This document shows positions 7,074 through 28,659 of a stretch of 61,602 nucleotides of DNA, piece after piece. Origin of the DNA: a bacterium (GTDB lineage Bacteria > Sysuimicrobiota > Sysuimicrobiia > Sysuimicrobiales > Kaftiobacteriaceae); contig DASWFZ010000098.1 in the NCBI GenBank assembly GCA_036393975.1, positions 1 to 61,602 of the forward strand, read 5' to 3'. The notes beneath the pieces are model-generated. The model was not told the origin of the DNA and searched no databases. It saw only the letters and a program-made list of their open reading frames with translations. The first letter of the stretch is position 1. Each line of letters starts with the position of its first letter. The position numbers and the translations under genes are program-made.

Positions 7074-7149
7074 GGGCCCGTAGCTCAGTGGACAGAGCAG
7101 GGGACTCCTAAGCCTCTGGTCGGGGGTTCGATTCCCTCCGGGCCCGCCA
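7074..7149 (+). tRNA. tRNA-Arg (anticodon CCT), CCA encoded
   Basis: Hand-folded cloverleaf. Acceptor GGGCCCG/CGGGCCC; D arm GCTC-AGTGGACA-GAGC; anticodon loop CTCCTAA (T33, CCT, A37); T arm GGGGG-TTCGATT-CCCTC; discriminator G; CCA at 7147-7149. There is one A-G mismatch at 31:39. Confidence 0.9.
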
Positions 7150-7266
7150 AATCTATCACGGGTTTCGGCGCTCCCGTCTCTCCGAACGGCTTCGTTTTGG
7201 GGCGCAGGGATGTTGCGAGGAGACGAATCCACCGCCAGAAGCCGAGAGCATGGGTGGCGGCAGAAT

Positions 7267-8490
7267 CTAGTAGTAGCGGGAGTCTTCGACAGTCTCGGCG
7301 ACAAGCCGGCCGTGGCTAATTACGTAGCGGGGAGGACGATGTACGCGGAGTGCCTCATGGACTGTGTCCCCCTGGAGGACTACCAGGTGGGCGACCCTGC
7401 CGACCGCCACACCGTAGTCGCGGAGTCCCAGCATCTGTGCCGGCAGGTCCGTGATCATGTCGAAAAGCATATCCATCTGCGCAAAGGTCGGTGTCCCGAG
7501 GATGTGCGAGGCAAGAAACGCAACCTCGATCAGATTGTGCTGCCCGTAAGGGTAGTAGGCATCCACGATGTCGTCCTGCCCCAAAGCCACGGGGATGCCC
7601 GCTTCCACAAGTTCCTTGACTCTAAGGTGGTGAGACCCGGTGTGCGGGTTGGTGACGAACCGCATCCCAGCCCGTTGGACAAGAGCAATCAGCCGTCTGA
7701 AATATGGCTCCGGGTATACCGCCATCGCGCGTGCGTGACAGGCAGTGATTCTCCCCAGCCAACCTATCCGGATCGCCGCCTCAGCCAGCATCTGTGTCGT
7801 TCGCAGTCCTGGGTCGCCTGCATCGTCGACGAGCATGGCCACGTCACGATCGTACGTCTTCGCGAGGCCAAGCATGCGTTCGACGTGCTCCTGCGCCTCG
7901 GAGTCAGTGTGCTCAGTCCACGGTATACCGCCGACCACGTCGGCCCCCAGCTCGACCGCCTCGCGCACGTAGTCTTCGGCCCCAGGGTCGCGGAGCAGCC
8001 CATCCTGCGGGAACGCTACGACGCGCACGTCCACGATCCCGCGCAGTTCATCCCGTAGCCGCAGTAGGGCCTTGACGGCTTCAAGACGCGCACGGGTGTC
8101 TGTATCGGCGAATGCCTGCACGTGCGTCACGCCGTGTTTCAGCCCATCGAGAATAGCCCGACGGGCGTTCTCGTAGATCCAGGATTCTTGGTACTTCTCC
8201 TTTAGGGACGAGGCCAGTTCAATCGCCATCATGGCCTCTCCCTTTCCGCCCGCCGTGTACCGTCGGACGGCCTGGTCGCCGATCATTGGAAGCGTATACA
8301 CCTTACAGAGGTGGAGGTGCGCATCGACGAACGAACCGGTGAGAAGGTTGCCGTCCCCTTCGAGTTCCTTCCGGCCCTGCAAGGGTTCTGGTGAGATGGC
8401 CGCGATACGCCCCTCGCGGACGCCGACATTCACGACGCCGTCGGGATGACGCCTGAGCCGGACCCCCTGGACAACCAGATCGTGCTCCAA
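7267..8490 (-). CDS. Metal-dependent amidohydrolase, cytosine deaminase (CodA)/AtzC-like
   Basis: N-terminal FVDAHLHLCK metal-binding motif and GQDDIVDAYYPYGQHNL, which closely resembles the CodA GHDDVFDPWYPLG region. Length 407 aa. Confidence 0.7.
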   Translation of the reverse strand: MEHDLVVQGVRLRRHPDGVVNVGVREGRIAAISPEPLQGRKELEGDGNLLTGSFVDAHLHLCKVYTLPMIGDQAVRRYTAGGKGEAMMAIELASSLKEKYQESWIYENARRAILDGLKHGVTHVQAFADTDTRARLEAVKALLRLRDELRGIVDVRVVAFPQDGLLRDPGAEDYVREAVELGADVVGGIPWTEHTDSEAQEHVERMLGLAKTYDRDVAMLVDDAGDPGLRTTQMLAEAAIRIGWLGRITACHARAMAVYPEPYFRRLIALVQRAGMRFVTNPHTGSHHLRVKELVEAGIPVALGQDDIVDAYYPYGQHNLIEVAFLASHILGTPTFAQMDMLFDMITDLPAQMLGLRDYGVAVGRVAHLVVLQGDTVHEALRVHRPPRYVISHGRLVAETVEDSRYY

Positions 8491-8832
8491 CGCACCTACC
8501 TCGTCTGCTAAGCGCGATCTAGGATACGAACAGCCGCGAGCGCCGATCCCGTGGCCGCACGATCCTGCCCCTTTCAGGTGTCCGCGACGCTATAGGCGTA
8601 GTCAACGATGCTTCGACCACAGTGAGGATCTTCCCGTCCTCCACGCACGATGCCTCCATCGATAACGACTGTCCGGGACGTGCACGGGTGCGCGCTGTGG
8701 GGAACCGCGATGACCAGATTGGCCGGCTCCCTTCTCTCGATCGACCCCACTTGCTCGCATGCCAGGTCGAGTCCTCGACCGAAAAGGCGCTTCCGCCCCT
8801 GTGAACGGTGGCCGTCCAGGTTCGTTTTCAGC

Positions 8833-8867
8833 TTGACATGCTGGGACAAACCGTAGTATAGGATACT
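8833..8867 (+). promoter_or_regulatory. Candidate promoter plus GntR/HutC-type operator in the divergent amidohydrolase/gntR spacer
   Basis: TTGACA at 8833-8838 is followed 15-18 nt later by TAGTAT/TATAGG. The inverted repeat AGTAT-AGG-ATACT at 8855-8867 contains the GT-N-AC core typical of GntR operators. It lies 19 nt upstream of the gntR ATG. Confidence 0.4.
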
Positions 8868-8885
8868 CAGTACCCTAAGAATCCT

Positions 8886-9698
8886 ATGCTGGATGGTAAT
8901 CCATGCTCCACTGTGGGTCGGAGACCTAGGGTGCCCTCGAAGGACGCAACCATCTTCACGCCCCTTGATCCCACGAAGCCGATTCATGAGCAAATCCGTC
9001 TGGCGATCGCGAGAAGCATTGAATCCGGAGCATTGAAGCCTGGCGACAAGCTGCCTTCGGAGGCTGAGCTCCAGCGTGCCTACAAGGTCTCAAGGACCCC
9101 TGTCCGCCAAGCCCTTACGGCCCTCGAGGCAGCCGACCTAATTTACAGCGCTCAGGGCCGGGGGTCGTTCGTCAGGCGCCCGATGATTGTTGGGAGGTTC
9201 GGCGCTCTGATCAGCTTCGGAGATGAGCTCAGGGATGAAGGTCACGCGGTTGAAGCCAAGACGCTCTCGGTGAACATGACTACGGCCGACGAAGCCGTCG
9301 CTCCTGCGCTCGACTTGGCCTTCGGAGAAGCTGTCATTGCGCTGCGACGCCTTTTCCTTGTTGATGGGGAGCCTATGGCGCTTTTCGATCACCGTATTCG
9401 GCCCGTCATCTCGCTTCAGGTTCTAGAGCGCGGAGGCGATTTCTTGTCCCTAAATAGCCTCCTCAGCCAGCAAGGGTTTGCGCCGGCTGAAGCCATGCAA
9501 ACCATCGGGGCGACCAGCGTGACGACGGAGGAAGCGGGCCTCTTGGGTGTTGACGAAGGCACGCCTAGCCTCCTCGTCAAGCAGACTTCGTTCACTGCCG
9601 CCGGGATGCCGGTGTCATATGCTCAATTCCTGGTGCGGGCGGACCGCTACGAGTACCGAGTCCATCTGGGGAGGCGGGCCCCGCTGGCGGCGGAATAG
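8886..9698 (+). CDS. GntR-family transcriptional regulator, HutC subfamily (UTRA effector domain)
   Basis: Winged-HTH sequence IHEQIRLAIARSIESGALKPGDKLPSEAELQRAYKVSRTPVRQALTALEAADLIYSAQGRGSFV followed by a ~170-aa C-terminal domain. An alternative GTG start at 8931 is possible. Confidence 0.85.
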   Translation: MLDGNPCSTVGRRPRVPSKDATIFTPLDPTKPIHEQIRLAIARSIESGALKPGDKLPSEAELQRAYKVSRTPVRQALTALEAADLIYSAQGRGSFVRRPMIVGRFGALISFGDELRDEGHAVEAKTLSVNMTTADEAVAPALDLAFGEAVIALRRLFLVDGEPMALFDHRIRPVISLQVLERGGDFLSLNSLLSQQGFAPAEAMQTIGATSVTTEEAGLLGVDEGTPSLLVKQTSFTAAGMPVSYAQFLVRADRYEYRVHLGRRAPLAAE

Positions 9699-9777
9699 CG
9701 CGCTCGAATTGAATCAGGCCAGATCGTGGCGGACCCTTGTAACGCAGCGGGTGCGACCGTGAGGACGGGAGACTGAG

Positions 9778-11253
9778 ATGGCAGAGACTGGACTCTTTGC
9801 TTCCATCCAGCGCGCTGACGCGCGTCTCGACAAATACGGCATTCCTCTCGAAAAGAACCTACTTGTTCCCTTGAACCTCTTTGACAAGGCGCACTGCGTC
9901 ATGCTCTACGAGCAGAACATCGTCTCGAAGGAGGCCGCCGCCGCCATATTGAGGTCCCTCAAGAAGGTTGATGAACGAGGCGTGGAGGGGTTCCCCTGGG
10001 GCAAAGGCGACCTGTGGCCGCAGAAGGAACGCTTTGTCATCGACGACATAGGTGAAGATACTGGGGGGCGCCTCCATACCGGACGAAGCCGACAGGATGT
10101 GGGCGTCACCGTGAACCGCCTGTACCTAAGAACCAGAGTGCTGGACATGGCGGAGCTCCTCAACGACTTCAGGGATGTGCTCCTGGATCAGGCGAGCCAG
10201 CACGTCGAAACGGTCATGCCCTGTTACACCTGGATGCAGCACGCGCAGACGACCACCTTCGCTCATTACCTCCTAGGGTGTGCCTTTGCGATGGAGCGGA
10301 ATTTCCAGAGGATTGCGCGCGCGTACGGGTTGACGAACATGAGCCCGGCGGGAGCTGCCCTTCAAACCGGGACCTCCCATCCAATCGACAGGCAGCGGGT
10401 GGCAGATCTCTTGGGTTTCGACGGCGTGATCCGGAACACGCGCGACGCGGCGATGAACTATGACTACCTGGGCGAGATCATGGTTGCCGCCTCGTTCACA
10501 GTAGGGGATCTGGTGCGTCTGATCGAGGATTTTGCGGTGTGGCACTCTGCGGAGTTCGACATGATCTCTCTCGACGACGCCTGGTGCGGTACCAGCTCGA
10601 TCATGCCGCAGAAGCGAAACCCCACTCCTCTAATGCTCGTCCGAGGCAAGGCTTCCCGGGTTTTCGCTCGCGCCAACCAGGCTTTCAGCACTATGGAGGG
10701 CCCCTGCTTTGGACCCCCTGGACCGTTCTTCCTCCGAAGTGATACCAACGATGTCATCGAGGAGTTCCTCGGCATCTTCACGATGGCGGCGGGGTTCGTG
10801 TCCACGCTCCGAGTCAAGGCGGAGGTAATGCGGAAACGGGCGGGCGTCCATTGGGCGCAGGCCACCGACCTGGCGGACACGATTGTCAAGGACAAGGGTC
10901 TCTCATTCAGGAGCGCGCATCACGTCGTTGCGGAAGTCGTATCAATGGCGGAGGCGGCCGGCAAACATCCGGTGGATGTCGACTCCGAAATGATCGACCA
11001 AGCAGCAGTGAAGGTCCTCAAGAGACGGCTCGGGTTGAGCGAGGACGCGATCAAGAATGCACTCGATCCATCCCGGAGCGTGAGAATCCGAACCGTCTAC
11101 GGAGGCACGTCGCCCGACGATGTCGGCGGTCAGATCGAAGAGGCGCACCGGCAACTGACCGCGGATGCAAAACAGACCGAGGCATGGAAGGGCAGACTCG
11201 CACAGGCGCAGAGGGACCTCGATGAGACCGTCAAGAGAGTGTTAGGCGCATAG
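9778..11253 (+). CDS. Argininosuccinate lyase-like enzyme (fumarate-lyase superfamily)
   Basis: Superfamily signature GTSSIMPQKRNP and LHTGRSRQDV. The N-terminus resembles ArgH. The context is not an arginine operon, so the substrate is uncertain. Confidence 0.75.
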   Translation: MAETGLFASIQRADARLDKYGIPLEKNLLVPLNLFDKAHCVMLYEQNIVSKEAAAAILRSLKKVDERGVEGFPWGKGDLWPQKERFVIDDIGEDTGGRLHTGRSRQDVGVTVNRLYLRTRVLDMAELLNDFRDVLLDQASQHVETVMPCYTWMQHAQTTTFAHYLLGCAFAMERNFQRIARAYGLTNMSPAGAALQTGTSHPIDRQRVADLLGFDGVIRNTRDAAMNYDYLGEIMVAASFTVGDLVRLIEDFAVWHSAEFDMISLDDAWCGTSSIMPQKRNPTPLMLVRGKASRVFARANQAFSTMEGPCFGPPGPFFLRSDTNDVIEEFLGIFTMAAGFVSTLRVKAEVMRKRAGVHWAQATDLADTIVKDKGLSFRSAHHVVAEVVSMAEAAGKHPVDVDSEMIDQAAVKVLKRRLGLSEDAIKNALDPSRSVRIRTVYGGTSPDDVGGQIEEAHRQLTADAKQTEAWKGRLAQAQRDLDETVKRVLGA

Positions 11254-11305
11254 TGGAAGTGCAGTCAGGTCGCTGACCTCGTAGTCAGCGAGGAGGAGCG
11301 TGGGG

Positions 11306-11989
11306 ATGAGAATCGTTGATCTAAGCCATGAAGTCTACAATGGAATGCAGCAAATATTCGCTGGCCCAATCCCGAGCATTTTCGATAACAACGTCAGGAT
11401 ATTCGAGAATTTTCAGGCCGTGAGCGATGCCTGCGTACTGCAGAATCACCTGGGTACCCACATCGACGCGCCGCGCCACTACAACCCCAAGGGGGGGAGG
11501 GCCGTCCACGAGGTCCCGCTCGAACAGCTCATCACTGAGACAGTTGTGCTCGACCTTACTGCAAAGCCCGGCCGTTCGGCGATCACCGCCGACGACCTCG
11601 ACCGGGCCCTTCGGAAGACCGGCGAGACGATTCATGAAGGCGACGGCGTGATTATCCACGTCGGGGGCGGTGCGAAGTACCGCACTTGGCAGGGCCAGAA
11701 CTGGCGCGATTCTGAATACGCGAATACCCCGTACTTGAGTGAAGATGCCGTGCAGTGGCTCCTCGCCAGAAAGATCAGCATCCTCGGCATCGACGCCTTG
11801 GCACCCGATTGGGAGGAGGGCTATCGTCCCGCCCATCAGATCCTACTGCGGGACAACAACATCCCCATTATCGAGAATCTTTGCAACCTCGACCAACTCT
11901 CCCGGCCGCGCATCACCTTCATCGCTCTCCCACCCAAGGTCGTAGGAGCCAGTGGGTTCCTCGTTCGGGCGGTCGCTATTGAGAAATGA
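11306..11989 (+). CDS. Cyclase-family protein (kynurenine formamidase/arylformamidase-like)
   Basis: HLGTHIDAPRH matches the HxGTHxDxPxH motif. The ATG at 11306 lies 8 nt after AGGAGGAG. The ORF-track GTG at 11300 is too close to that RBS. Confidence 0.75.
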   Translation: MRIVDLSHEVYNGMQQIFAGPIPSIFDNNVRIFENFQAVSDACVLQNHLGTHIDAPRHYNPKGGRAVHEVPLEQLITETVVLDLTAKPGRSAITADDLDRALRKTGETIHEGDGVIIHVGGGAKYRTWQGQNWRDSEYANTPYLSEDAVQWLLARKISILGIDALAPDWEEGYRPAHQILLRDNNIPIIENLCNLDQLSRPRITFIALPPKVVGASGFLVRAVAIEK

Positions 11990-12080
11990 AGGCACGACGT
12001 AACGCAAGCGCAGGAGCGCTTCGAGGGGGAAGCTTACGAAAATCGTCGGAACCCAACGATGTCTTCGGGGAGGAGTGACA

Positions 12081-13685
12081 ATGTGGAGAGATAGGAAATT
12101 ATCGCGATGGACCGCCGTTTCGTGTGCCGCAACTCTCATAGCGCTGACCGCGCTCTATGCCTTACCAGCCCAACCTGGGCCCAGTCGACCAGTTCTAAGG
12201 TTGGCCCCGGAGGCAGGACTATCGGGGCTGGATCCGCAAAGCGGCAAAGCGATCATCGACATCATCGTCGCAAGTCAAATCTACGACACCTTGGCCGGTC
12301 AGGACAGCGCCGGAAGGCGCATCCCTGCGCTGGCCACCGGCTGGAAGAGCGTGGATCCCACGACTTGGGAGCTGACCCTCCGAAAGGGCGTCACCTTTCA
12401 CGATGGGACGCCGTTCGACGCTGCCGCAGTCAAATTCAACATCGACCGCGCCGTTGACCCCACGCGGGCCGGACGATCTATGTTGTTCCAGCCATACATC
12501 GAGGGGGCGGAGGTCGTCGACAACTATACGGTGAGTATCAAGACACGTGGCCAGATCCCTTACCTCCCTTACATCCTGGGGTATGGGTTCCTCGGGATTG
12601 TGAGCCCGAAGGCGGCGAGTGGCACCGGGGTCGACTTGGCGAGAAATCCTGTCGGCACGGGACCGTTCAAATTCACCAAGTGGGTGGAGAGAGAGTACGT
12701 CGAGATGGTCGCCAACGACGGCTACTGGGGTGGACAGCCCAAGATCGCCGGCATTACCTGGAAGCTCATTCCATCTGAAAGTGCCAGGGTGCTCGCCCTC
12801 CAGTCTGGAGAGGTGGACGCCATCGCCAACCCTCTGTCCGAGTTGATACCACAGCTGGTGAACACCGGAAGGTTTCGGCTGATCAAGTCTGAGGCCAATG
12901 CTGTCGTCGGCATCTGGCTCAACCCCGAAGTGAAGGCCCTGAGCGACGTTCGTGTGCGCAGGGCCATCCATCACGCGATCAACCAGCAGGCCATTCTCGA
13001 GAACATCATTAGGGGCGTTGCACGGCCAGCTTACCAAATTCTGGGGCCGTCGGTCTTTGGCATGTTTGCTGAAGCCCAGATTCCCAAGGGAGGCTTCTAT
13101 CCCTACGACCCCAACAAAAGCAAGCAACTGCTGGCCGAGGCGGGTTGGAAGGATTCGGATGGCGACGGGCTGGTTCACCAGGGTGGTCAGAAACTGACAG
13201 TCACGGTGCAGACTCCAGACGGTCGATACCTGAAGGACCGACAAATCGCGGAGGCTACCACGGCCTACCTGCGGGCGGTCGGGATAGACGCCAACCTGCG
13301 GGTCGTAGAATTCCCCACGCACTCCACAGCCGTCACACAGCACCGCGTGGAGATCTTCGTCCTAAGCTGGGGCTTTCCAACAGGATATCCTGAGCCCGGC
13401 TTCTACTCCGTCTTCCACAGCTCAAAGGACGGCGGTCCAGCGGTCTGGGCGCAGTGGAAGAACTCGGAGGCCGACGCCATGATGGATCAGGCGCTGGTCG
13501 AACCGAGCGCGAGCCTGCGGCAGGAGCTTTACCGAAGGGTGATGCGCCTAGCGATGGACCAGGCGATTATCAAGCCGCTCTACTGGAAGCCGATCCTTTG
13601 GCTTGCCTCGACATCGGTGAACAACCTCAACTTCATGACGACCGAAGAACCGGTCAAGCTGGTCAACACGGAGGTGAAGAAGTGA
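12081..13685 (+). CDS. ABC transporter substrate-binding protein, family 5 (peptide/nickel/opine type)
   Basis: Signal-anchor WTAVSCAATLIALTALYALPAQP. Length and sequence are typical of DppA/OppA-like SBPs. ATG at 12081 follows AGGAG; the ORF-track GTG is at 12075. Confidence 0.8.
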   Translation: MWRDRKLSRWTAVSCAATLIALTALYALPAQPGPSRPVLRLAPEAGLSGLDPQSGKAIIDIIVASQIYDTLAGQDSAGRRIPALATGWKSVDPTTWELTLRKGVTFHDGTPFDAAAVKFNIDRAVDPTRAGRSMLFQPYIEGAEVVDNYTVSIKTRGQIPYLPYILGYGFLGIVSPKAASGTGVDLARNPVGTGPFKFTKWVEREYVEMVANDGYWGGQPKIAGITWKLIPSESARVLALQSGEVDAIANPLSELIPQLVNTGRFRLIKSEANAVVGIWLNPEVKALSDVRVRRAIHHAINQQAILENIIRGVARPAYQILGPSVFGMFAEAQIPKGGFYPYDPNKSKQLLAEAGWKDSDGDGLVHQGGQKLTVTVQTPDGRYLKDRQIAEATTAYLRAVGIDANLRVVEFPTHSTAVTQHRVEIFVLSWGFPTGYPEPGFYSVFHSSKDGGPAVWAQWKNSEADAMMDQALVEPSASLRQELYRRVMRLAMDQAIIKPLYWKPILWLASTSVNNLNFMTTEEPVKLVNTEVKK

Positions 13686-13840
13686 AAGAGCCACGGGCGG
13701 CCGCTCGGCGGAATGGCATGCCCGGTTAACATAAACTAGTGGGTGGCGACTCATTGTGCCAGGGCACCGCGGCGGCAGGAACCGCGTCGATCCGGCACGC
13801 CGATTGACGAGAGGTTTTCGAGAAGGACGGATGTTCACCT

Positions 13841-14770: not shown

Positions 14771-14786
14771 CCGGCGGGAATTCGAC

Positions 14787-15620: not shown

Positions 15621-15634
15621 GAGGACGGGACAGC

Positions 15635-17579: not shown

Positions 17580-17787
17580 TTAGTGGAATTGGTTCGTTCA
17601 AAACGGATCGTTTCAACTTTGATGTCCTTACGACCGCTCGACTAAGCCTCGCAGTCTTGTCTACCAGATGCCACCGAACCCGGCCAAACCAAGGACGCGT
17701 GCTCAGGCTGCCTACTAAGGGGTCGGAATCCCAACAGGACGCGGTTCAGCAACATCATCTGATCTCACGGGTACTCGTTGGAGAGTT

Positions 17788-17832: not shown

Positions 17833-17915
17833 ACCCGCATCAGGACTGCGTTTTCGCAATTTCGGCTCCTCCAGAATCCCTACAAAAAGCCCCTGCTCAC
17901 CCGCTCCGGGAGGCC

Positions 17916-18315: not shown

Positions 18316-18635
18316 AACACGACGCTACTCGTCCCTCGTCGGCACGGACCTGCAGCGACCGCCCCGGAAGCGGTCGGCCATCGAGCGCTTGCGGCTGGAG
18401 TGATCGTCAGGTGAACGAGCCGGATGCGAAGTTCAGGAGGGAGGACGAGGTGTTCTTCGGCCCCGCGGGCCGGCGTAAAGCAAATCACATCCCGCTGCTT
18501 GCGCCTTGGGGACCTGCAGCGGCGTGACGAACGCTTCCCGGATCCGGACATTCGGCCCGGTAGCCAGGACGGCCAACAAGCATGGGCCTAATTTGGTCCC
18601 AAGCCTGCACCGGCCGGCACTTGTGCGTCTCACCC

Positions 18636-20350: not shown

Positions 20351-20540
20351 GCGGACCCTTTATGCCTCCCAGTGTTCTCCAACGTGGACAGGAACGCCTC
20401 CGGGGTCGTCGAACACTTTTTGTCGCTTCCCTCCACCACGTCGATGCTTGGTTGGGAGGTGAGAGCGCCTGCACTCGGGCTCCGGCACGGGCGTTCCAGG
20501 CAACATTACCGATCGTGATCGCAGGAAGAGGAGGCAGACG

Positions 20541-22055
20541 ATGGATCGGAGACGGCGCGCACGAAGGGTTCTTGGAAGTCTACTTGTTCTGGCCCTCGCT
20601 CTGAGCACAGGGTCTTTGATAACGCTGGCGGCGAGGGCGGCCATGCAGACACCGCAGGAGCTCCACGTTATCCAGTGGGACTTCCCGCCCAAGTTTAGCA
20701 ATGTGACCGTGAACGTTGTCGGCGACGCCGGCCACAACCTGGCGCCCTACGAGTTCTGGAAGGATCATTTTCCCAAGGCCGGCATCACAGTCAAGATTAT
20801 CGAGGTTCCGTTCGAGGGCGTGTATGAGAAGGAGAAGACCGAGTTTGTGGCAGGCTCCGGCGCCTTCGACGTTGTCACGTTCTTCCCAGCGTACATCGGT
20901 GACTTTGCCAGCAACGGGTACCTGGAGCCGCTGGACGAGTACATGAAGAAGCAGCCGGACAGCGTGTGGAACCCCCACCAGGAGGACGTGCTACCGCCGT
21001 TCCGCGAGCTGTACAACAAGTGGGCCGGGAAGACCTACGCGCTGACCATCGACGGTGACGCGCACTTGATGATCTACCGGAAGGACCTCTTCACGAACGC
21101 GGCCGAGAAGGCGGCGTTCAAGGCCAAGTACGGCAAGGAGCTGATGCCGCCGGAGACCTGGGAGGATTGGTTGCAGATCGGTGCGTTCTTCACACGCAAG
21201 AAGGGTGAGAAGCTGGCCGGCGAGACCCTTAAGCGCGATTTCTACGGCTCGGCGGAGTTCGCCAAGCGGGGGTTCTCGTTCGCCTGGTTCGTCGATCGCT
21301 GGGCGGCGAGCGGCGATCTCTACTTCGACGAGAACATGAAACCGCAGATCAACTCTCCTGCAGCCGTCAAGGCGCTGCAGAACTTCGTGGACAGCCTGAA
21401 GAATGCTCCGCCCGACGTACGGGCGTACGGCTACGATGAGCTGCGGGACGCGCTTTTGAAGGGCAACGTCGCCATGGTCGTGCAGTGGACCGACGTGCCC
21501 AAGAAGGGTGCCAATCCGGCAGAATCGCAGGTCGTCGGTAAGCTGGACTATGGCCGCGTCCCCGGGTGGCGCATCGGGGGCAAGGTCGTCCACCGGGCAA
21601 TGATGCCGGTGGGCCGCGTGGTGGCGGTGGCGTCGTCCAGCAAGAACAAGCTGGCCGCGTACTGGGTGGCCAAGCACATCGCCTACGATATGAGCCTGGA
21701 GGATGTCTCCACGGCGTTCACCGGGCTAGACGTCAACCGCGGCGTGCACTTTAGTCATCCGGAAGCGTACGTCGACTTCAAGAGCAAGGCTGAGGCGGCT
21801 GCCTACTTGGACCGCGTGAAGGAGGCGCTGGGGGACGGCTATCCCGAGATCTTCATCCCGGGCGCGGCGCAGTACGAGGATGCGCTGGACCTGCACGTGA
21901 ACAAGGCCCTGGCGGGGCAGGAGACGCCCAAACAGGCTCTGGACGCCGTGGTGCAGGAATGGAACGCGATCACCGATCGCCTCGGCCGACAGAAGCAGAT
22001 CGACCTGTGGCATCAGGCCCTCAATAGTTACAGGGTCGCGGGACTGATCAAGTAA
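20541..22055 (+). CDS. Extracellular solute-binding protein, family 1 (sugar ABC transporter SBP)
   Basis: Arg-rich signal MDRRRRARRVLGSLLVLALALSTGSLITLAARAA. AGGAAGAGGAGG RBS. 504 aa, typical CUT1 SBP size. Confidence 0.8.
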   Translation: MDRRRRARRVLGSLLVLALALSTGSLITLAARAAMQTPQELHVIQWDFPPKFSNVTVNVVGDAGHNLAPYEFWKDHFPKAGITVKIIEVPFEGVYEKEKTEFVAGSGAFDVVTFFPAYIGDFASNGYLEPLDEYMKKQPDSVWNPHQEDVLPPFRELYNKWAGKTYALTIDGDAHLMIYRKDLFTNAAEKAAFKAKYGKELMPPETWEDWLQIGAFFTRKKGEKLAGETLKRDFYGSAEFAKRGFSFAWFVDRWAASGDLYFDENMKPQINSPAAVKALQNFVDSLKNAPPDVRAYGYDELRDALLKGNVAMVVQWTDVPKKGANPAESQVVGKLDYGRVPGWRIGGKVVHRAMMPVGRVVAVASSSKNKLAAYWVAKHIAYDMSLEDVSTAFTGLDVNRGVHFSHPEAYVDFKSKAEAAAYLDRVKEALGDGYPEIFIPGAAQYEDALDLHVNKALAGQETPKQALDAVVQEWNAITDRLGRQKQIDLWHQALNSYRVAGLIK

Positions 22056-22072
22056 ACCGCGGAAGCAGGGAT

Positions 22073-22104
22073 AGGGGAGGGGCGGCGGTGACCGTTCCTC
22101 CCCT
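22073..22104 (+). other. Intercistronic hairpin between the SBP and permease genes
   Basis: AGGGGAGG - 16 nt - CCTCCCCT, an 8-bp perfect stem. SBP-distal hairpins are common in ABC operons, where they raise SBP transcript stability. Confidence 0.3.
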
Positions 22105-22125
22105 GCGCTGCGAGGCCTCCGGGAG

Positions 22126-23070
22126 ATGGGGACGAGAGTCGGCCGGGACGTGCTGGCGCCTCAGCCGGCGGGACGGGTCGCGCGGCGGTTCAGGCTGACC
22201 CCCGTGCTGATGGTGCTGCCGGCGGTTGTTGTGCTCTTGGCGATCACCGTCTTCCCTCTGGTTTCCACGCTCCGCCTGACCGTGATGTCGTGGGAACTCA
22301 CCACCGGGTTCCCACCGCAGTTTGTGGGACTCCAGAACTTCGCGAGGGCGTTCTTTCACGACCCCCGGTTCTGGAACGCGATGATGAACACCGGCATCCT
22401 GGTCGTCGTGGGCGTCGGGCTCCAGACCCTGATCGGGATGGGACTCGCCCTGGAGTTGCATCAGCTGGGCCGTCTCCGCACGTTCGTCCTCTCGCTGTTC
22501 TTGATCCCCGTGATGATCGCTCCGGTCATCGCCGGCTTCCAGTTCCGGATGATCTACAATGATCAGTTCGGCCCGCTGAACTACCTCCTGGACCAGTTCA
22601 CTGGAGGCCGCTTCCACGGGTACGCCTGGCTCGCCGACCCGCGCGTGGCGCTGGCGGCGGTGATGTTCACCGACGTCTGGCAGTGGACGCCGTTCATGAC
22701 GCTGGTCGTGCTGGCCGGGCTCCAGGCGATCCCGGCTGAACTCCTGGAAGCCGCCGAGGTTGACGGCGCCACCGGTCCCCAGACCCTCTGGCGCGTCATG
22801 CTTCCACTCTTGCTCCCGGTGATCGTCATCGGCGTCCTCGTGCGGTTCATGGACACCTTCAAGCTCTTCGACATCGTGTACCAACTGACCGCGGGCGGAC
22901 CGGGGAATGTGACTGAGACGATCGCCTACTACACGTACCTGGAAGGGTTCAAATTCTTCAGCCTGGGCTACACGTCGGCGCTGGCGTTCATCCAGCTCGT
23001 GGTCATTACGGTCGTCGCCCAGGTCTTCCTCCGGTACCAGAAGCGCGTGAGGGCGGGGATGGCGACTTGA
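22126..23070 (+). CDS. Carbohydrate ABC transporter permease (CUT1)
   Basis: Multi-pass permease with the conserved loop region LLEAAEVDGATGPQTLWRVMLPLL. Confidence 0.85.
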   Translation: MGTRVGRDVLAPQPAGRVARRFRLTPVLMVLPAVVVLLAITVFPLVSTLRLTVMSWELTTGFPPQFVGLQNFARAFFHDPRFWNAMMNTGILVVVGVGLQTLIGMGLALELHQLGRLRTFVLSLFLIPVMIAPVIAGFQFRMIYNDQFGPLNYLLDQFTGGRFHGYAWLADPRVALAAVMFTDVWQWTPFMTLVVLAGLQAIPAELLEAAEVDGATGPQTLWRVMLPLLLPVIVIGVLVRFMDTFKLFDIVYQLTAGGPGNVTETIAYYTYLEGFKFFSLGYTSALAFIQLVVITVVAQVFLRYQKRVRAGMAT

Positions 23071-23906
23071 GGAGACGCCCGCCCGGTCGCCGGTTGCTGA
23101 CCTTGGTGATCCTCATCGCGGCCCTCGCCGTCTTCTTGTTTCCGGTCGCGTGGATGTTCCTGACCTCGTTTAAGAGCAACCCGGAGTTTTTCGCCTATCC
23201 GCCCGTGTTCATCCCGAAGTCGTTCGCCCTCACCAACTACGTGAATGCCATGCCCTTCCCGCCCGACGGCCGCGGTGGGATACAGGGTGTTCGGGACAGC
23301 CTGATCATCTCGGTCGGCTCGATGGTGGCCTCCGTGCTGGTGGGCGCCCCGGCCGCCTACTCCTTCGCGCGGTTCCGCACGGGGGGCGAGAACCTCTCGT
23401 TCTGGGTTCTATCCACGCGCATGTTCCCGCCTGTGGCGTCGGCGTTACCGCTATTCTTGGTGTTCAAGGCGCTGCACCTCCTCGATACCCACTGGGCCCT
23501 GATCCTGGCGAACACGATCTTCAACCTGCCGTTTGTCATCTGGCTGCTCAAAGGGTTTTTTGAGGACCTGCCCGTGGAGTTGGAGGAGGCCGCGGTGATC
23601 GATGGCACGACTATCTTCGGGGCGTTCCGGCGCATCGCCCTGCCTCTCGTTGCGCCAGGCCTGGTCGTCACCGCGCTGTTCTCGTTCATCTTCACGTGGA
23701 ACGAGTTTATGTTCGCGCTGTTGTTCACCCGCCGGGATGTGCGCACGCTGACGATTATCGTGCCGAGCCTCGTGGGCGGGCACGAGATCCTGTGGGGCCA
23801 GGTCGCCGCGGTGGGGGTCGTGGCGATCATCCCCAACGTCCTCCTCGCCCTGCTCTTGCAGCGCTTCCTGGTCCGCGGCCTGACGCTGGGGGCGGTCAAG
23901 GGCTGA
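23067..23906 (+). CDS. Carbohydrate ABC transporter permease (CUT1)
   Basis: LEEAAVIDGTTIFGAFRRIALPLVAPG conserved loop. 4-nt overlap with the upstream gene. Confidence 0.85.
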   Translation: MRRRPPGRRLLTLVILIAALAVFLFPVAWMFLTSFKSNPEFFAYPPVFIPKSFALTNYVNAMPFPPDGRGGIQGVRDSLIISVGSMVASVLVGAPAAYSFARFRTGGENLSFWVLSTRMFPPVASALPLFLVFKALHLLDTHWALILANTIFNLPFVIWLLKGFFEDLPVELEEAAVIDGTTIFGAFRRIALPLVAPGLVVTALFSFIFTWNEFMFALLFTRRDVRTLTIIVPSLVGGHEILWGQVAAVGVVAIIPNVLLALLLQRFLVRGLTLGAVKG

Positions 23907-23991
23907 CGTAGAACGGCCCGTGAAGTCCTGATGTTGGGGCGTGCTGTGCGGGAGCGCCGCGGTGGATTGCTGGACGACAGGAGGGGGCTCG

Positions 23992-24324
23992 ATGGTGAAA
24001 CTGGTCGCCTTTCTCAAACGCAAGCCGGGGATGAGCAGGGAGCAGTTTGCCCGGCGCTGGGTCGAGTCACACGCGAAAATGGCCGCGCAGCTGCCGGGAC
24101 TGCGCGGGTACCGCATCAACATCGCCACCGCGTGCCAGCCGGAGGGGACCGATCCCGAACCGATCTACGATGGGACTGCGGAGCTGTGGTGGGACAGCAT
24201 CGACGCGATGGAGGCGGCGTTCGCGACAGACCTGGGGCAGCGCGCCGGCGCCGATGCTGATGAGTTTGCCTCGGTCCGCATCCACCTGTATACGACCGAG
24301 CACGTGATCGTCAAGAACCCATGA
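23992..24324 (+). CDS. EthD-domain protein (small dimeric alpha/beta-barrel)
   Basis: MVKLVAFLKRKPGMSREQFARRWVESHAKMAAQLPGLRGY ... is typical of EthD-family proteins. GGAGGGGG RBS lies upstream of the ATG at 23992. Confidence 0.65.
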   Translation: MVKLVAFLKRKPGMSREQFARRWVESHAKMAAQLPGLRGYRINIATACQPEGTDPEPIYDGTAELWWDSIDAMEAAFATDLGQRAGADADEFASVRIHLYTTEHVIVKNP

Positions 24325-25274
24325 CGGCGGGCGGTCCGATGAACGCCGGCCCAAAGATCTGCGTCGTCGGGTCGTCCAACATCGACCTAATCTCCCGCGT
24401 TCCCCGCCTGCCCAGGCTGGGCGAGACCCTCGTGGGACACTCCTTCCACCTGGGCTACGGCGGCAAGGGAGCCAACCAGGCGGTCATGGCGGCGAAGCTC
24501 GGCGCGCGGGTGACCATGGTCACACGGGTCGGGCGGGACGTCTTTGGCGAGGGGACGCTGCGAAACTACAGGGAGCAGGGTATCGACACCACCTACCTGC
24601 GGTTCGACGACGAACGTTTTTCCGGCGTGGCTCCAATCTTCGTGGACGACTCCGCGCAAAACGTGATCGTCATTATCCCGGGGGCGAATCTGGGGTTATC
24701 CCCTGCTGACGTGCAGGACGCCGGCCCGGCTCTCCGTGCTGCGGACGTGGTGGTCTGCCAGCTCGAGGTGCCGGTAGAGACGACGCTCGAGGCGTTCCGG
24801 ATCGCCAAATCCGCGGATGTGCGGACTATCCTCAACCCCGCCCCGGCGGCGCCATTGCCGGACGAGCTGCTGCGTCTTACCGATCTGTGCGTGCCGAACG
24901 AACCGGAAGCCGAGACGCTCACCGGACTCGCCGTGAGAACCGGTGAGGAGGTCGAAGCGGCGGCCCGGGCCCTCAGACTGCGCGGCCCGCGGGCGGTGAT
25001 CATCACCCTGGGGGAGCGGGGCGCTCTGTTCGCGGACGCAGGGATGGTGGAGTACGTCCCGCCGATCCGGGTCAACGCGGTGGACCCCACCGGCGCCGGT
25101 GACGCGTTCATCGGGAGCCTGGCCGTCTTCTGGGCGGAGGGGCTGTTAGTTCGGGAAGCGATTCGGCGGGCCAATGCGGTGGCGGCGTTTTCAGTGACAC
25201 GCATCGGCACACAGGTGTCGTTTCCTACACGGTCTGCCTCCGATGCGTTTCTCGCGCAGCAGGGGATCGTCTAG
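24321..25274 (+). CDS. rbsK: Ribokinase (PfkB family)
   Basis: GGKGANQA and DPTGAGDAF PfkB/ribokinase signatures. ATGA overlap with the EthD stop. Confidence 0.8.
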   Translation: MTAGGPMNAGPKICVVGSSNIDLISRVPRLPRLGETLVGHSFHLGYGGKGANQAVMAAKLGARVTMVTRVGRDVFGEGTLRNYREQGIDTTYLRFDDERFSGVAPIFVDDSAQNVIVIIPGANLGLSPADVQDAGPALRAADVVVCQLEVPVETTLEAFRIAKSADVRTILNPAPAAPLPDELLRLTDLCVPNEPEAETLTGLAVRTGEEVEAAARALRLRGPRAVIITLGERGALFADAGMVEYVPPIRVNAVDPTGAGDAFIGSLAVFWAEGLLVREAIRRANAVAAFSVTRIGTQVSFPTRSASDAFLAQQGIV

Positions 25275-25454
25275 GTGCCATTGTTCACATGTGGCGCGCC
25301 CGGCGGGAACGTGGGGTACCCCAGACCAAAGAGGTCGTTGCATCCCCCATACAGGAGGTGGTAGGAGTGGACGATCAGGCGGTAAGAAAGCCCCTGCTCA
25401 CCCTTCTAGAACCCGCATCTAACGCGGGGGGGCATGGCCGAAAGGAACAGATGC

Positions 25455-25496
25455 CTCCTAAGCCCCTGGTCGGGGGTTCGATTCCCTCCGGGCCCG
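25455..25496 (+). repeat. tRNA-Arg(CCU) 3'-half copy 2 (att-like direct repeat)
   Basis: CTCCTAAGCCCCTGGTCGGGGGTTCGATTCCCTCCGGGCCCG is followed by TCA instead of CCA. Scrambled pieces of the integrase-leader repeat (AAAGCCCCTGCTCACCC, AACCCGCATC) lie just upstream at 25388-25421. Confidence 0.8.
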
Positions 25497-25569
25497 TCAG
25501 CCTAATCCCTGCATCTATCAAGAATGACTGTGCGATGTGCTCTTCGAGATCTTCCGAGAGGACATTGCT

Positions 25570-25764
25570 CTAGCCGCTCGGCCTGTTCTTCTCGGGGGAG
25601 GGGGTCGATTTTTCCAGTTCGTTTTGCGTCTCGCGCAGAGCACCGCGGAACTCGCGAATCGCCTGCCCTAAGGCTCCTCCAAGCCCCGCTAACCGCTGAG
25701 GACCGAAGAGGATGAATGCCACGATGAGAATGATGACTAGCTCCGGCCATCCGACGCTCAACAT
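25570..25764 (-). CDS. tatA: Twin-arginine translocase subunit TatA/E
   Basis: 64 aa. N-terminal TM helix plus hinge and amphipathic helix (PELVIILIVAFILFGPQRLAGLGGALGQAIREFR), the canonical TatA pattern. Confidence 0.9.
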   Translation of the reverse strand: MLSVGWPELVIILIVAFILFGPQRLAGLGGALGQAIREFRGALRETQNELEKSTPSPEKNRPSG

Positions 25765-25855
25765 ACGTCACCCCTTTGGCTTGATTACACTGTTCATCTT
25801 CGAATTGCGGGACTCGGGACTGCACATCGCACGTCCCTGCTCCCGCCGCGTCGCG

Positions 25856-27016
25856 CTACGCCACAAACAATCCCGTGAAGTACATGATGAGGAGTCCCGC
25901 TGCGAATCCGGCCACCTGATACCCGATAGCTGATCGCTCGCCGATGATCCACTTTACGAGTTCGTAGACGACTTGGAAGATGGCGCCGGCACCAATAGCT
26001 AGAAAGAGCGTGGCCACGATCGGTGAGTAGACGAGGCCGCCGATTAGGGCACCCAGAATCGTTGGGACCCCGGCCACCGCGCCGAGCACCGCCAGCGTGC
26101 CCGGCGCCGGCCGATCCCGCGCGACAGGCGCCACGATCCCCAGGCCTTCCGTGGTGTTGTGGAGCGTAAACCCCAGCACCAGAAATGTCCCAAGGGCCAC
26201 CTTGCCCAAGCTGTACGCCGACCCGATTGCCAGCCCCTCCCCCAAGTTGTGCAGGCCGATCCCGACCGCGATCAGAAATGCGAGGGCAAACCGACGCTGC
26301 ACGGCGTCACCGCCGGCGGACGCCCTGCGGCTGACGGCGATCAGCAGCAGCACGGTCAGAACGACCCCGACCAGCACCAGCGCCACTCCCTGGAATGCGG
26401 GCGGCAACGTGCCGGCGACCTCAAGCGCCTCATGGACGGCTTCTACTCCGAGAAACAGGAGTAGGCCGGCGGTGAGGCTGAGGAAGAAGGCGATCCACCG
26501 CTGGTTTAGTTCGCGCAGAAACGGGAACCACAGTAGCCCCAGCAGGACGGGGATAACGCCGACGTAGATGCCCAGCAAGGTGAACGTGGTCAGATAGCGG
26601 GCATCGACTGTCGGCGTGGCCGTGGCAACCTCCACCGTGTGCTCAAACGCGACCCCCGTGGACGTCAGGATCTTGATGTGGTGCGCCTCCCCCTGCACCC
26701 ACGGGTACCCGACGGTGATGGTGGCTCGCCCCAGCCTCGACACAGTGGCGCGAGGTTCCATCGTGAACTGCCAGTATGCGTCGTCGACCAAAACCTGAGC
26801 CACGGTTACAGTCTGAGGACCTCCATTGGTCACATGGATGACCATCGTCCCCGGGTTCAGCGTGACGCGATCGATGGTGAGCTGCTCTACCGGGGGAAAC
26901 GCTGCCACAAACACGCCCAGTGGGCCGAACCGCATCAGGACGCCCACCAAGCCGAGGAGCAGAAGAAGGGGGATGAGCGCCCACATCCAGCGGCGGGCGC
27001 GGCTAGATCCCGGCAT
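25856..27016 (-). CDS. ZIP-family divalent metal transporter with an extra N-terminal extracytoplasmic domain
   Basis: ZIP/ZupT motifs GIGLHNLGEGLAIG and HNTTEGLG in the C-terminal ~250 aa. The first ~140 aa are a signal-anchor plus a beta-rich domain. The start overlaps the MCO stop by 14 nt. Confidence 0.75.
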   Translation of the reverse strand: MPGSSRARRWMWALIPLLLLLGLVGVLMRFGPLGVFVAAFPPVEQLTIDRVTLNPGTMVIHVTNGGPQTVTVAQVLVDDAYWQFTMEPRATVSRLGRATITVGYPWVQGEAHHIKILTSTGVAFEHTVEVATATPTVDARYLTTFTLLGIYVGVIPVLLGLLWFPFLRELNQRWIAFFLSLTAGLLLFLGVEAVHEALEVAGTLPPAFQGVALVLVGVVLTVLLLIAVSRRASAGGDAVQRRFALAFLIAVGIGLHNLGEGLAIGSAYSLGKVALGTFLVLGFTLHNTTEGLGIVAPVARDRPAPGTLAVLGAVAGVPTILGALIGGLVYSPIVATLFLAIGAGAIFQVVYELVKWIIGERSAIGYQVAGFAAGLLIMYFTGLFVA

Positions 27017-28133
27017 TGTCCGTTACCTCAAACAGACCCATCCAGCCCAGCTCGGTGAACTCAGTCTGATGCGCATGGAACATGAACCGCCCCGCGAACG
27101 GGAACCGCACTTCCAACACTGCTCGTTCCGCCTGGCAGAGCATGATGGTGTCCGTGTACTCCGACGGCGTCAGTGACGTTCCGGTGCGGTACGTGTGGAA
27201 GAAGTTGCCATGGATGTGGATAGAGTTGATGGGATCAAACTCCGTCAGGTTCACCAGGTAGATGCGGACCAGAGTGTTGCGCGTCACTCGGATTGGATGC
27301 TTCGCATAGTGAAACGCGATGGAGTTGACGGCGTAGAAATCGTTCTTGGCGTCAAAGTTGGTGTCGAAGCCGTTCATCACCAAGACTAGCTCTTGCGCCG
27401 GCGGCCGACCCTGTTGCGGGTCGATGATAAACACCCCATACAGCCCCTTGTGGATGTGCCGTTTCAGCGGCAGCGCGTGACAGTGGTACAGGTGTAGGCC
27501 GAATGGAATCGCGTTAAATTCATAAGTAAATGTCCCACCCGGTTGAATCTCCCCGGGGCCGACGCCTGGTACTCCATCCATCTCTGACTTGTGGATCCCG
27601 TGGAAGTGCAGCGTGTGCGGGTGCGTGCCCGCGTTCACGAAGTGCACCCGCACTCGATCCCCCTCGCGCACGCGAAGCGTCGGACCGGGCACTGTGCCGT
27701 TGAAGGTCCACGCCGGGAAGAACACCCCGGGGGCGATCTCGATCTCGCGGTCGTAGGCGATGATCCTGAACTCCCGTTGCGTCCGGCCGTCCGGCAGTGT
27801 GCTCACTGTTCCGGTATCAAAGTGGGTGAGGTAGGTGAGTGGATCGAAGCCCAGGCGCTTGGTGTCCACATCACCGACGGTGAGATTGCCTCGATGCGCC
27901 GCTTCATGCGAACTGGTGTGCCCGCTGGAGGTCACCCGCGGCGTGGCGACCCCTAGCGCCGGGGCCGCAGCGGCAAAAGCAATGCTGCCGACCACACCGG
28001 CTCCGGCTCGCAAGAACTCCCGCCGGGTTGCATTACCATTTTGGGATGCTGGCGATGAAGGTCGAGGAAACCGCAATCTTGGGAGAAGACCAACGACACG
28101 TGCAACCAAGCATCGAAGGGCTCGGGCATTCAT
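27003..28133 (-). CDS. Two-domain multicopper oxidase, Tat-exported
   Basis: Twin-arginine signal TRREFLRAGAGVVGSIAFAAAAPALG. Copper-ligand motifs HTLHFHG, HLYHCH...H, HIHGN and FHAH. GGGAG RBS lies 7 nt before the ATG at 28133. Confidence 0.8.
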   Translation of the reverse strand: MNARALRCLVARVVGLLPRLRFPRPSSPASQNGNATRREFLRAGAGVVGSIAFAAAAPALGVATPRVTSSGHTSSHEAAHRGNLTVGDVDTKRLGFDPLTYLTHFDTGTVSTLPDGRTQREFRIIAYDREIEIAPGVFFPAWTFNGTVPGPTLRVREGDRVRVHFVNAGTHPHTLHFHGIHKSEMDGVPGVGPGEIQPGGTFTYEFNAIPFGLHLYHCHALPLKRHIHKGLYGVFIIDPQQGRPPAQELVLVMNGFDTNFDAKNDFYAVNSIAFHYAKHPIRVTRNTLVRIYLVNLTEFDPINSIHIHGNFFHTYRTGTSLTPSEYTDTIMLCQAERAVLEVRFPFAGRFMFHAHQTEFTELGWMGLFEVTDNAGI

Positions 28134-28164
28134 CTGGATCTCCCTGACTTTAGCCTCAAATAAA

Positions 28165-28178
28165 TTAGTCTAGACTAA
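28165..28178. promoter_or_regulatory. Perfect 14-bp AT-rich palindrome (candidate operator) upstream of the multicopper oxidase operon
   Basis: TTAGTCTAGACTAA lies 32-45 nt upstream of the MCO start, within the only AT-rich stretch of this spacer, which also holds -10-like TAATTT/TATTTG on the coding strand. Confidence 0.5.
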
Positions 28179-28428
28179 ATCATAGACCGCCCCGGTGCGC
28201 CGGTCAACCCCTGACGGCCCAAACATCTCCGCTGGGTTTTCCCGGAGCTCGCGGGGAGGCTTTCAAACCACGGGTGGCTCATCCGGCGCTATGGCCTCCA
28301 ATAGCTGGGGCTTGGTGGGCGGAAAAAAGCGGTCGTCGGTGGACGTGGAAAGAAACTTGGAAGTCGCGGAATCACCATCTATGCAGCGGTCGGGACGTCC
28401 GCAGACGTTGGTAGAAGATTGCTAGATC

Positions 28429-28476
28429 GGACTCCTAAGCCCCCGGGCGGGGGGTTGATTCCCTCCGGGCCCGCCA
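28429..28476 (+). repeat. tRNA-Arg(CCU) 3'-half copy 3 (most degraded att-like repeat)
   Basis: GGACTCCTAAGCCCCCGGGCGGGGGGTTGATTCCCTCCGGGCCCGCCA. The variable region is altered and the T loop has lost one base (TTGATT instead of TTCGATT). Confidence 0.75.
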
Positions 28477-28659
28477 ACCCGCATTAGGACGGCGTTTTTG
28501 CAATTTCGCGTCTGCAGAATCCTACAAAAAACCCCTGCTCCCCCGCTCCACGAGACCATAGAAACGCTCCTGCTGACGAAGCAGGCGCGGGCTCAGATTT
28601 CCAACAACCTTGGGCCGGCAGGGAGGTTGAAGAGGAAGTGCCCGCTCAAGTGCGTGTAA
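28477..28659 (+). pseudogene. Second integrase leader and N-terminus remnant (start codon lost)
   Basis: Collinear with 17833-17990: ACCCGCAT(C/T)AGGAC..TTTTGCAATTTCG..CAGAATCC(C)TACAAAAA.CCCCTGCTC.CCCGCTCC. ATA at 28558 sits where copy 1 has ATG at 17916, followed by LLLTKQA versus LVLTKQV. The frame stops at 28657. Confidence 0.65.

Follow-up and report, generated by a model that had tools for sequence, protein, structure and literature searches.

Use of the 3' part of a tRNA gene by tyrosine integrases, regeneration of the gene, displaced gene fragments and tandem arrays of elements are textbook features of bacterial genomic islands. In Streptococcus thermophilus, the elements ICESt1 and ICESt3 are reportedly involved in accretion with cis-mobilizable elements (CIMEs), which are flanked by attachment (att) sites and lack recombination and transfer genes; accretion is said to have been reviewed for integrative and mobilizable elements too. 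Here we describe an array at a tRNA-Arg(CCT) gene of an uncultured soil bacterium, contained in the 61,602-nt contig DASWFZ010000098.1 (GenBank assembly GCA_036393975.1; Sysuimicrobiota, Kaftiobacteriaceae), the whole of which is referred to below as the window. Positions 7074-32642 are best explained, with a probability of roughly 85%, as a serially used tRNA-Arg(CCT) integration hot spot in which four islands, namely A, B, C and the truncated D', stand in tandem.

Among the 3919 islands of the Islander collection, 2083 have an anticodon-centred attachment site, and the same set includes 125 arrays of at least two islands and 4 of at least three, an integrase of its own being required for each member (Hudson, Lau & Williams 2015, PMC4383910). 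The tycheposons of Prochlorococcus (Hackl et al., bioRxiv 10.1101/2020.12.28.424599) are elements with a tyrosine recombinase and often a primase/helicase module, which carry up to 10 kb or more of nutrient-uptake and metal cargo, insert at specific tRNAs and are flanked by partial tRNAs. According to the same source, newcomers push older elements inward, fragmented integrases and partial tRNAs remain behind, and the content varies between strains.

The tRNA-Arg(CCT) array and its variation among sister strains

The tRNA-Arg(CCT) gene at 7074-7149 (+) was called by both ARAGORN and Rfam (62 bits in the latter). Its 25-nt 3' end, GGTTCGATTCCCTCCGGGCCCGCCA, has four matches in the window at up to three mismatches, all on the plus strand, at positions 7125 (0 mismatches), 17808 (0), 25475 (1) and 28452 (2), and none in 100 dinucleotide-preserving shuffles of the window. 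The blocks of identity measure 45-48 nt and run to CCA from tRNA position 32, where the anticodon loop begins; the copies cover tRNA positions 32-76, or 29-76 in the last one, and all lie 3' of the tRNA in the same orientation. A full tRNA gene (tDNA) followed by co-oriented 3' fragments that are terminal rather than internal is the arrangement by which tDNA islands are recognized. Relative to the tRNA 3' part of sister strains, taken as the canonical sequence, copies 2, 3 and 4 have 1, 1 and 4 differences, respectively. No fifth copy, including one that would mark the right end, rose above the shuffle level in Smith-Waterman searches of both strands of the window. The sequence directly after copy 2 (17833-17952) is homologous to that after copy 4 (28477-28593), with 85% identity across 165 nt when the repeat is counted in. 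For every junction of the array there are 6-12 independent soil-metagenome contigs (JGI, ENA, NCBI and Logan) that cross it at 99-100% identity, which excludes an assembly artefact.

The original prediction, made from the letters of the window, had placed the 3'-half copies on the plus strand only, at coordinates that proved correct to within 3 nt. Its further claim that two copies are followed by a homologous leader and the start of a tyrosine-recombinase gene is borne out for copies 2 and 4, and the decay said to rise with distance from the tRNA is real, if weak. Outside the array, ARAGORN also reported a 'tRNA-???' with a 2-nt anticodon at 4516-4603 (-), within an open reading frame (ORF) at 4286-5431; Rfam has no tRNA there, and the call is a false positive.

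Three contigs of the same species (L131, L132 and L134; compared loci carry the prefix L) join the left flank and the tRNA directly to the leader, integrase pseudogene and cargo of B, with 7150-17787, that is, the whole of A, exactly missing. This is the repeat-bounded presence/absence polymorphism that had been set beforehand as a test of tandem integration, and it also represents the sporadic occurrence that TIGER looks for in an island. Position 7115 is T (GCCTC, on the 3' strand of the anticodon stem) in all 20 loci with A, which comprise about 12 independent contigs and the window, and C (the canonical GCCCC) in all 4 loci without it. A T confined to A-containing loci is what would be expected if the element substituted a 3' half of its own for that of the tRNA. 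An attP of GCTTC and a single reciprocal crossover between 7114 and 7115 would explain the T variants of both the tRNA and copy 2, a scenario that is conceivable at best: it is disfavoured because two adjacent markers on opposite sides of the crossover are at odds with an overlap region of 6-8 bp at the anticodon loop. Equally simple is an attP of GCCTC with one later mutation in copy 2.

The left flank of L103 (4317-7073) differs from the window at 260 positions in 2.8 kb (~9%), the last of them at 6937, whereas its tRNA and A differ at only 4 positions in 4.7 kb (99.9% identity). The divergence falls ~100-fold close to the tRNA, with the switch located between 6937 and the gene, indicating that A recently entered diverged backgrounds with the tRNA as its boundary.

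Downstream of copy 3, four different continuations were found: haplotype H1, with C as in the window; H2 (L092, L095, L097 and L134), in which a 929-bp SnoaL segment takes the place of 25500-32642 (C, copy 4 and D'); L098, with a third diverged leader, an integrase stub and a hydantoinase; and L107, with another, different sequence. The variant bases of copy 3 track the downstream haplotype and the end of B upstream is constant, which fits integration of B into tRNAs with differing downstream content. Contigs lacking B alone were not observed. The H2 segment (L092:7665-8593) encodes a SnoaL-like protein and has 55% G+C, against ~62-63% in the window; judging by this composition, it may itself be foreign. 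At a locus with a 96% identical flank (L137), the same tRNA is immediately followed by an integrase that is intact (288 aa) and retains every catalytic motif; the same holds for L138, with a flank of 88% identity.

Modules still come and go in the population, and the view of the array as a fossilized stack does not survive at this level: A is 99.9% identical in a ~9%-divergent background, L137 has an intact integrase, and four different sequences follow copy 3. The built-in chronology read from the order of the islands stands in so far as A is the newest, but B is common to haplotypes with different distal content. The distal part was either assembled separately in different backgrounds or replaced later, and gene order is a reliable clock for A only. 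Tandem site-specific integration into the tRNA 3' end, the core of the original prediction, is supported; the two observations named against it, a shared gene order without repeat-bounded polymorphism and membership of the fragments in a dispersed repeat family, were both looked for and neither holds.

The islands were probably delivered by integrative elements of one Xer-like tyrosine-recombinase family, the attP of each element duplicating the tRNA between the anticodon loop and CCA. Insertion near the anticodon loop would rebuild the tRNA from the element copy and move the old 3' part to the far end of the element, and repeated use of the site would stack islands, with the newest adjoining the tRNA. 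In this genome the integrase genes have been deleted or inactivated, leaving a gutted pseudogene and both arms in B, a leader and ~10 codons in D', and at most ~15 nt of leader in A and C. Present movement could be due to an intact integrase acting in trans, supplied by a related element that occupies this tRNA in sister strains, or to homologous recombination between the shared repeats and flanks.

Segments, cargo and flanks

The features of the array are collected in Table 1. As predicted, the three segments between the copies carry metabolic, transport or metal cargo according to Pfam, which detected no phage, conjugation or replication genes in the array. The variable region, expected to end at 28659, extends through the truncated D' to 32642.

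Table 1. Coordinates of the tRNA-Arg(CCT) array in the window
Feature	Position	Strand	Remarks
Intact tRNA-Arg(CCT)	7074-7149	+	attL core 7105-7149, anticodon loop to CCA
Segment A	7150-17787		10,638 nt; no integrase
A: amidohydrolase	7267-8490	-	Pfam
A: GntR/UTRA regulator	8886-9698		Pfam
A: Lyase_1/ASL (argininosuccinate-lyase-like)	9778-11253		Pfam
A: cyclase-family protein	11300-11989		Pfam
A: SBP_5	12075-13685		Pfam
A: two permeases	13841-15620		Pfam
A: two ATPases	15635-17579		Pfam
Copy 2	17788-17832	+	attR of A, former attL of B; 1 difference from canonical (T at 17797)
Segment B	17833-25454		
B: leader (integrase-proximal arm)	17833-17916	+	family 16-mer AAAGCCCCTGCTCACC at 17886-17901
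B: Xer-like tyrosine recombinase pseudogene	17905-18400	+	residues 1-117 and 237-288 of a ~288-aa protein
B: cargo region	18591-25274		
B: two permeases	18636-20350	-	
B: SBP_1	20541-22055		
B: two permeases	22126-23906		
B: EthD	23941-24324		
B: PfkB kinase	24321-25274		
B: distal arm	25387-25454	+	second 16-mer (25387-25402) and CCCGCATC hairpin-like motif
Copy 3	25455-25499	+	attR of B; 3' part and downstream sequence vary by haplotype
Segment C	25500-28428		2.9 kb; no integrase
C: TatA	~25502-25700	-	PF02416 on 64-aa product
C: ZIP-like membrane protein	25856-27016	-	
C: multicopper oxidase	27003-28133	-	
Copy 4	28429-28476	+	most decayed, 4 differences; identity begins 3 nt earlier, at tRNA position 29
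Leader and ~10 codons of another integrase of the family	28477-28593	+	rest of gene deleted; score 131 against copy 2 leader
Segment D' (fourth, truncated)	28594-32642		no distal att copy
D': guanylate/adenylate cyclase	29124-29702		
D': cyclic-nucleotide (cNMP)-binding protein	30094-30513		
D': Pyr_redox flavoprotein	30504-32036		
D': cNMP-binding protein	32157-32579	-	

In A, the SBP_5 gene together with the two permease and two ATPase genes makes up a five-gene Dpp/Opp-type ATP-binding cassette (ABC) transporter. The tetranucleotide distance of A is 0.178, compared with 0.131 ± 0.013 for flank pieces of the same size. The proposed comparison of segment composition with the flanks set A apart and not B, C or D', so composition alone would not have revealed the islands. 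A 216-nt stretch across the two ATPase genes of A (16546-16761) is absent from L113, which is otherwise ~100% identical.

The ABC transporter genes of B are of the sugar type according to Pfam. The integrase pseudogene at its left end is damaged by one frameshift (~17980), two in-frame stops and an internal deletion of ~119 residues, with which the box I Arg and the HxxR box are gone. Neither an intact integrase nor a second integrase-like sequence was found anywhere in the window; the predicted lack of a functional integrase in the array is borne out for the window, intact genes occurring only in relatives. The distal arm of B has the layout seen in the distal arms of intact relatives.

The B module has independent rearrangement junctions at 18590 (L135) and 18601 (L095). 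L135 (1-4067) and L136, which correspond to JGI Ga0066706_10007852 and Ga0066665_10000295, match window positions 18591-22660, and downstream of their tRNA lie an integrase of the family, interrupted by a single in-frame stop, and genes of DISARM-like type (N6_N4_Mtase, DrmE_C and a helicase). L095 lacks the integrase pseudogene (17935-18600). Its first 90 nt, before B, contain a collapsed remnant consisting of CTCCTAAGC, a deletion and then CCCGCATC, and the next ~45 nt resemble window positions 28393-28431, just upstream of copy 4. The remnant looks like an element shrunk to ~65 nt between two att copies.

Two further small deletions distinguish otherwise ~100% identical contigs: a 98-nt stretch upstream of the multicopper oxidase of C (28030-28127) is absent from L091 and L119, and an 85-nt stretch in a cNMP-binding gene of D' (32362-32446) is absent from L124.

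The best named protein matches of the host are to Armatimonadota or unclassified metagenome-assembled genomes (MAGs), at ~60-65% amino acid identity. When species-representative genomes were scanned with the PEBP protein of the left flank, the best matches were 64% identical (Armatimonadota and unclassified MAGs) and had no tRNA nearby. In the left flank, a 47-nt direct repeat (1877-1923 and 4187-4233, 89% identical) brackets a gene for a 642-aa protein, and L137 lacks 1970-6132, a second indel polymorphism. Elsewhere in the window, 52706-58913 encodes at least two large proteins with nucleotide-cyclase and STAND/AAA NTPase domains, the second also with TPR repeats, and between them lies a domain-less 519-aa ORF. 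The cluster adjoins a tRNA-Ser(CGA) gene (58934-59023, -), at which neither an integrase nor a tRNA fragment was seen.

The integrase family and its arm motif

A scan of metagenome DNA with the alignment of the integrase family returned 79 loci, in nearly all of which the integrase homology begins 71-72 nt past the tRNA 3' end. The targets include five tRNA-Arg genes (CCT, GCG, CCG, TCT and TCG) as well as tRNA-Gly(CCC), tRNA-Ala(TGC), tRNA-Pro(TGG), tRNA-Ile(GAT) and tRNA-His(GTG). Among 61 distinct loci, the integrase is full length without stops in 31, interrupted by a single in-frame stop in 2, truncated or frameshifted in 19 and cut by contig ends in 9. A protein search with the reconstructed integrase N-terminus, which returned products of 228 aa or less only, had suggested that the whole family is dead, an idea that we reject because roughly half of the distinct loci (31/61) are full length.

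Intact elements with both ends in view measure 3.6-6.6 kb, are bounded by perfect attL/attR repeats of the tRNA 3' part and carry Prim-Pol/D5_N primase-helicases or other helicases; examples of such replication modules are those of L156 (Prim-Pol, D5_N and DUF5906), L145 (Prim-Pol) and L184 (AAA_25). L136, a relative at tRNA-Arg(CCT), has defence genes as cargo. No relatives of the integrase family were found among IMG/VR viral contigs. The integrative elements of the family are small and non-viral and combine a replication module with varying cargo. The integrase is Xer-like but scores far below the NCBIfam equivalog cut-offs for XerC (156.8 versus 335.15), XerD (130 versus 329.6) and XerA (152 versus 220), and its best PDB relative is 4a8e, a XerC-like/XerA-type protein. 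In another organism (L179/L180), the tRNA is followed by an integrase-less 5.2-kb segment, a copy and then an integrase stub. L165 (9673-9845) and L156 (9769-9845) are two versions of one locus: in one of them the complete tRNA-Arg(CCT) gene is tandemly duplicated, immediately before an intact integrase of the family with a Prim-Pol/D5_N element.

Almost all members (loci L129-L198) carry a 16-mer, AAAGC-nnnn-GCTCACC, 53-54 nt past the tRNA end. The window has exactly two occurrences (17886 and 25387; shuffle mean, 0.16), one at each end of B, and none in segments A and C. In the intact elements L144, L156 and L165, too, each arm bears the 16-mer, the one before attR at a comparable distance from it; B, which shares this arrangement, is thus a complete element of the family with a dead integrase. 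The four variable nucleotides tend to have the same sequence as the 3' anticodon-stem strand of the target tRNA: the match amounts to 3.53 of 5 compared positions, versus 2.43 ± 0.23 in 2000 shuffles (maximum, 3.32), a statistic that ignores the shared ancestry of elements with the same target. The 16-mer is a candidate binding site of the integrase. An integrase of this kind would have no separate arm-binding domain and would cross over at the anticodon loop, its core binding sites being the strands of the stem; the 16-mers on the arms could be extra copies of one core half-site.

The first ~25 nt of the family leader form a hairpin followed by a T-run, resembling a tRNA terminator, with compensating changes among members; the window's copy was not flagged in a simple terminator scan. 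Gene callers extend the integrase ORFs through the tRNA. A reading of the leader as an N-terminal coding extension through the tRNA, as in split SSV1-type genes, is unsupported, there being no conserved start codon. The first 16 nt of A resemble the start of the L141-type leader (14/15 matches), and 25507-25522 in C resembles the L141/L130-type start equally well. In a comparison with the first 20 nt of these leaders, the 14/15 matches of A and C fall at the equivalent position (P ~0.005-0.01 per comparison), which is suggestive only of family arms in the two segments.

Alternative explanations and related systems

Several observations weigh against a purely site-specific history of the array. 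The window contains no functional integrase, excisionase, replication or transfer gene, and no circular or attP junction was seen among the contigs; reads were not searched. Haplotypes without A have a 9%-divergent patch at 6250-7045, abutting the tRNA, and the flanks form a mosaic in which tracts of 99.9% identity alternate with tracts of ~91-93%, indicating that homologous recombination tracts reach the hot spot and may carry islands along. The haplotypes rejoin at 32643 and the 32642/32643 boundary has no repeat, so that either D' has lost its distal att site or the difference between H1 and H2 is a replacement. The want of a working integrase, the patch and mosaic flanks and the repeat-less end would all suit an old array in which present variation is entirely of the RecA type, arising by deletion between the 45-nt direct repeats and by import of haplotype blocks via flanking homology; deletion between the tRNA and copy 2 yields the same product as excision, and a crossover between 7114 and 7115 would regenerate GCCCC. 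We regard this account as possible but doubtful, since sister strains and relatives have GCCCC as the canonical form, the T at 7115 goes with A without exception, the divergence of L103 collapses near the tRNA, the downstream half of copy 3 co-varies with four downstream contents and an intact family integrase sits at the same tRNA in L137. These points fit repeated site-specific events, to which homologous recombination may have contributed.

The remaining reservations about the integration model concern the segments themselves. A and C have no clear family arms other than the 14/15-nt matches and could be another type of element, or DNA caught between decayed elements; composition deviates in A only, B, C and D' being typical; and in another species (L135) the B transporter genes, 96% identical, stand inverted upstream of tRNA-Arg(CCT), an arrangement that is unexplained. 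It could be supposed that neither A nor C was ever a mobile element in its own right: small elements of 4-7 kb, with an integrase and replication genes, would have inserted repeatedly and decayed almost entirely, and the operons between the scars would have been acquired or rearranged in some other way. Indeed, the relatives that are intact and bounded are of small size, with Prim-Pol/D5 or helicase genes and no metabolic operons, A and C have neither integrase genes nor convincing arms, the B transporter module recurs in other contexts, and the L095 element has collapsed between two copies. We nevertheless consider this unlikely: A is gained or lost as a unit exactly between the tRNA and copy 2 and hardly differs from one diverged background to another, the metabolic cargo of B is enclosed by both family arms, and relatives with large cargo exist, such as L136 with its DISARM-like genes. 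By far the least probable origin is a dispersed repeat family, tandem tRNA-gene duplication or a chimeric metagenome assembly joined at the repeats. Although repeats of 45-165 nt often break or mis-join metagenome assemblies, and many family contigs begin right at the tRNA, the window has only four copies, all co-oriented (the tRNA and three downstream of it), identity ends exactly at the anticodon loop and CCA with no 5' halves, and the 6-12 independent contigs across the junctions come from four assembly sources. The dispersed-repeat alternative fails on the same grounds, and the layout recurs across the integrase family.

The locus, read as a serially used integration site, is a well-documented but ordinary example of a known route of bacterial gene gain. 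Its value lies in being a population-resolved case of the gain of entire operons at one tRNA gene by an uncultured soil bacterium, with functions in peptide and sugar uptake, copper/metal handling and cyclic-nucleotide signalling, as well as a kinase. An array without a working integrase can remain an active site of gene exchange, and catalogues that require an integrase per island would under-count such loci. More noteworthy at the level of the family are the fixed 72-nt leader, the tRNA-mirroring arm motif and the swapping of cargo modules that lack an integrase. Should the motif prove to be a binding site, this family of ~288-aa, Xer-like integrases, encoded at a fixed distance from many tRNAs and accompanied by an arm motif that mirrors the anticodon stem, could be useful for predicting or re-targeting tRNA specificity. 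Tentatively, the locus may belong to a widespread counterpart of tycheposons in uncultured soil bacteria, with elements of the Xer-like integrase whose attP-arm 16-mers would be extra core half-sites at fixed positions (~54 nt after and ~60-70 nt before the core), the variable nucleotides co-evolving with the target tRNA, and with integrase-less cassettes such as A and C, lying between att sites derived from the tRNA, exchanged between strains in trans by an intact integrase that occupies this tRNA in other cells. The tRNA would then act as a platform for operon-scale cassettes.

As in Islander and TIGER islands, the 3' part of a tDNA is targeted, the gene is restored, a displaced fragment marks the end of the island and arrays arise by reuse of the site. 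Unlike in Islander arrays, no member here has an intact integrase (B has a pseudogene, D' ~10 codons, and A and C none), and the host is an uncultured soil lineage; as its members lack intact integrases, the array would probably be missed or merged by Islander-type software. A and C resemble CIMEs in being att-flanked segments without recombination or transfer genes, in tandem at one site, and mobilization of the CIME type, in cis or in trans, could apply here. They differ in that no conjugation or mobilization genes are present and in being targeted to a tRNA instead of the 3' end of fda, a protein-coding gene. The autonomous neighbour with a working integrase that is expected beside a CIME is lacking from the window, the intact integrase at this tRNA being found only in L137.

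The integrase shares with XerC, XerD and XerA a SAM-like core-binding domain and a catalytic domain, a length of ~288 aa and the lack of an arm-binding domain, but its gene always stands beside a tRNA in a mobile element, not at a dif-related locus. An integron was considered and rejected, since integron-integrase models score 54-75 bits against cut-offs of 265-435 and the segments, unlike promoterless single-gene cassettes that end in attC hairpins, are multi-gene operons with a regulator of their own (GntR) and with genes on both strands. A prophage or a phage satellite of the P4 or phage-inducible chromosomal island (PICI) type was rejected as well: the array has no phage structural, packaging or interference domains, and the integrase family has no relative in IMG/VR.

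Measured against tycheposons, the locus differs in its soil host with 62% G+C, as opposed to streamlined marine cyanobacteria, and in its fixed ~72-nt leader with a target-matching 16-mer, a feature that does not appear in the passages of the tycheposon description compared here. The replication module that often adjoins the tycheposon integrase is missing from the window and present in the intact relatives L156, L145 and L184. Integration at a tRNA, partial-tRNA flanks, tandem stacking, degenerate remnants and turnover between strains are all found here as in tycheposons. By analogy, and with the integrase placed as Xer-like, the locus would work like the tycheposon and tRNA-island system of Prochlorococcus.

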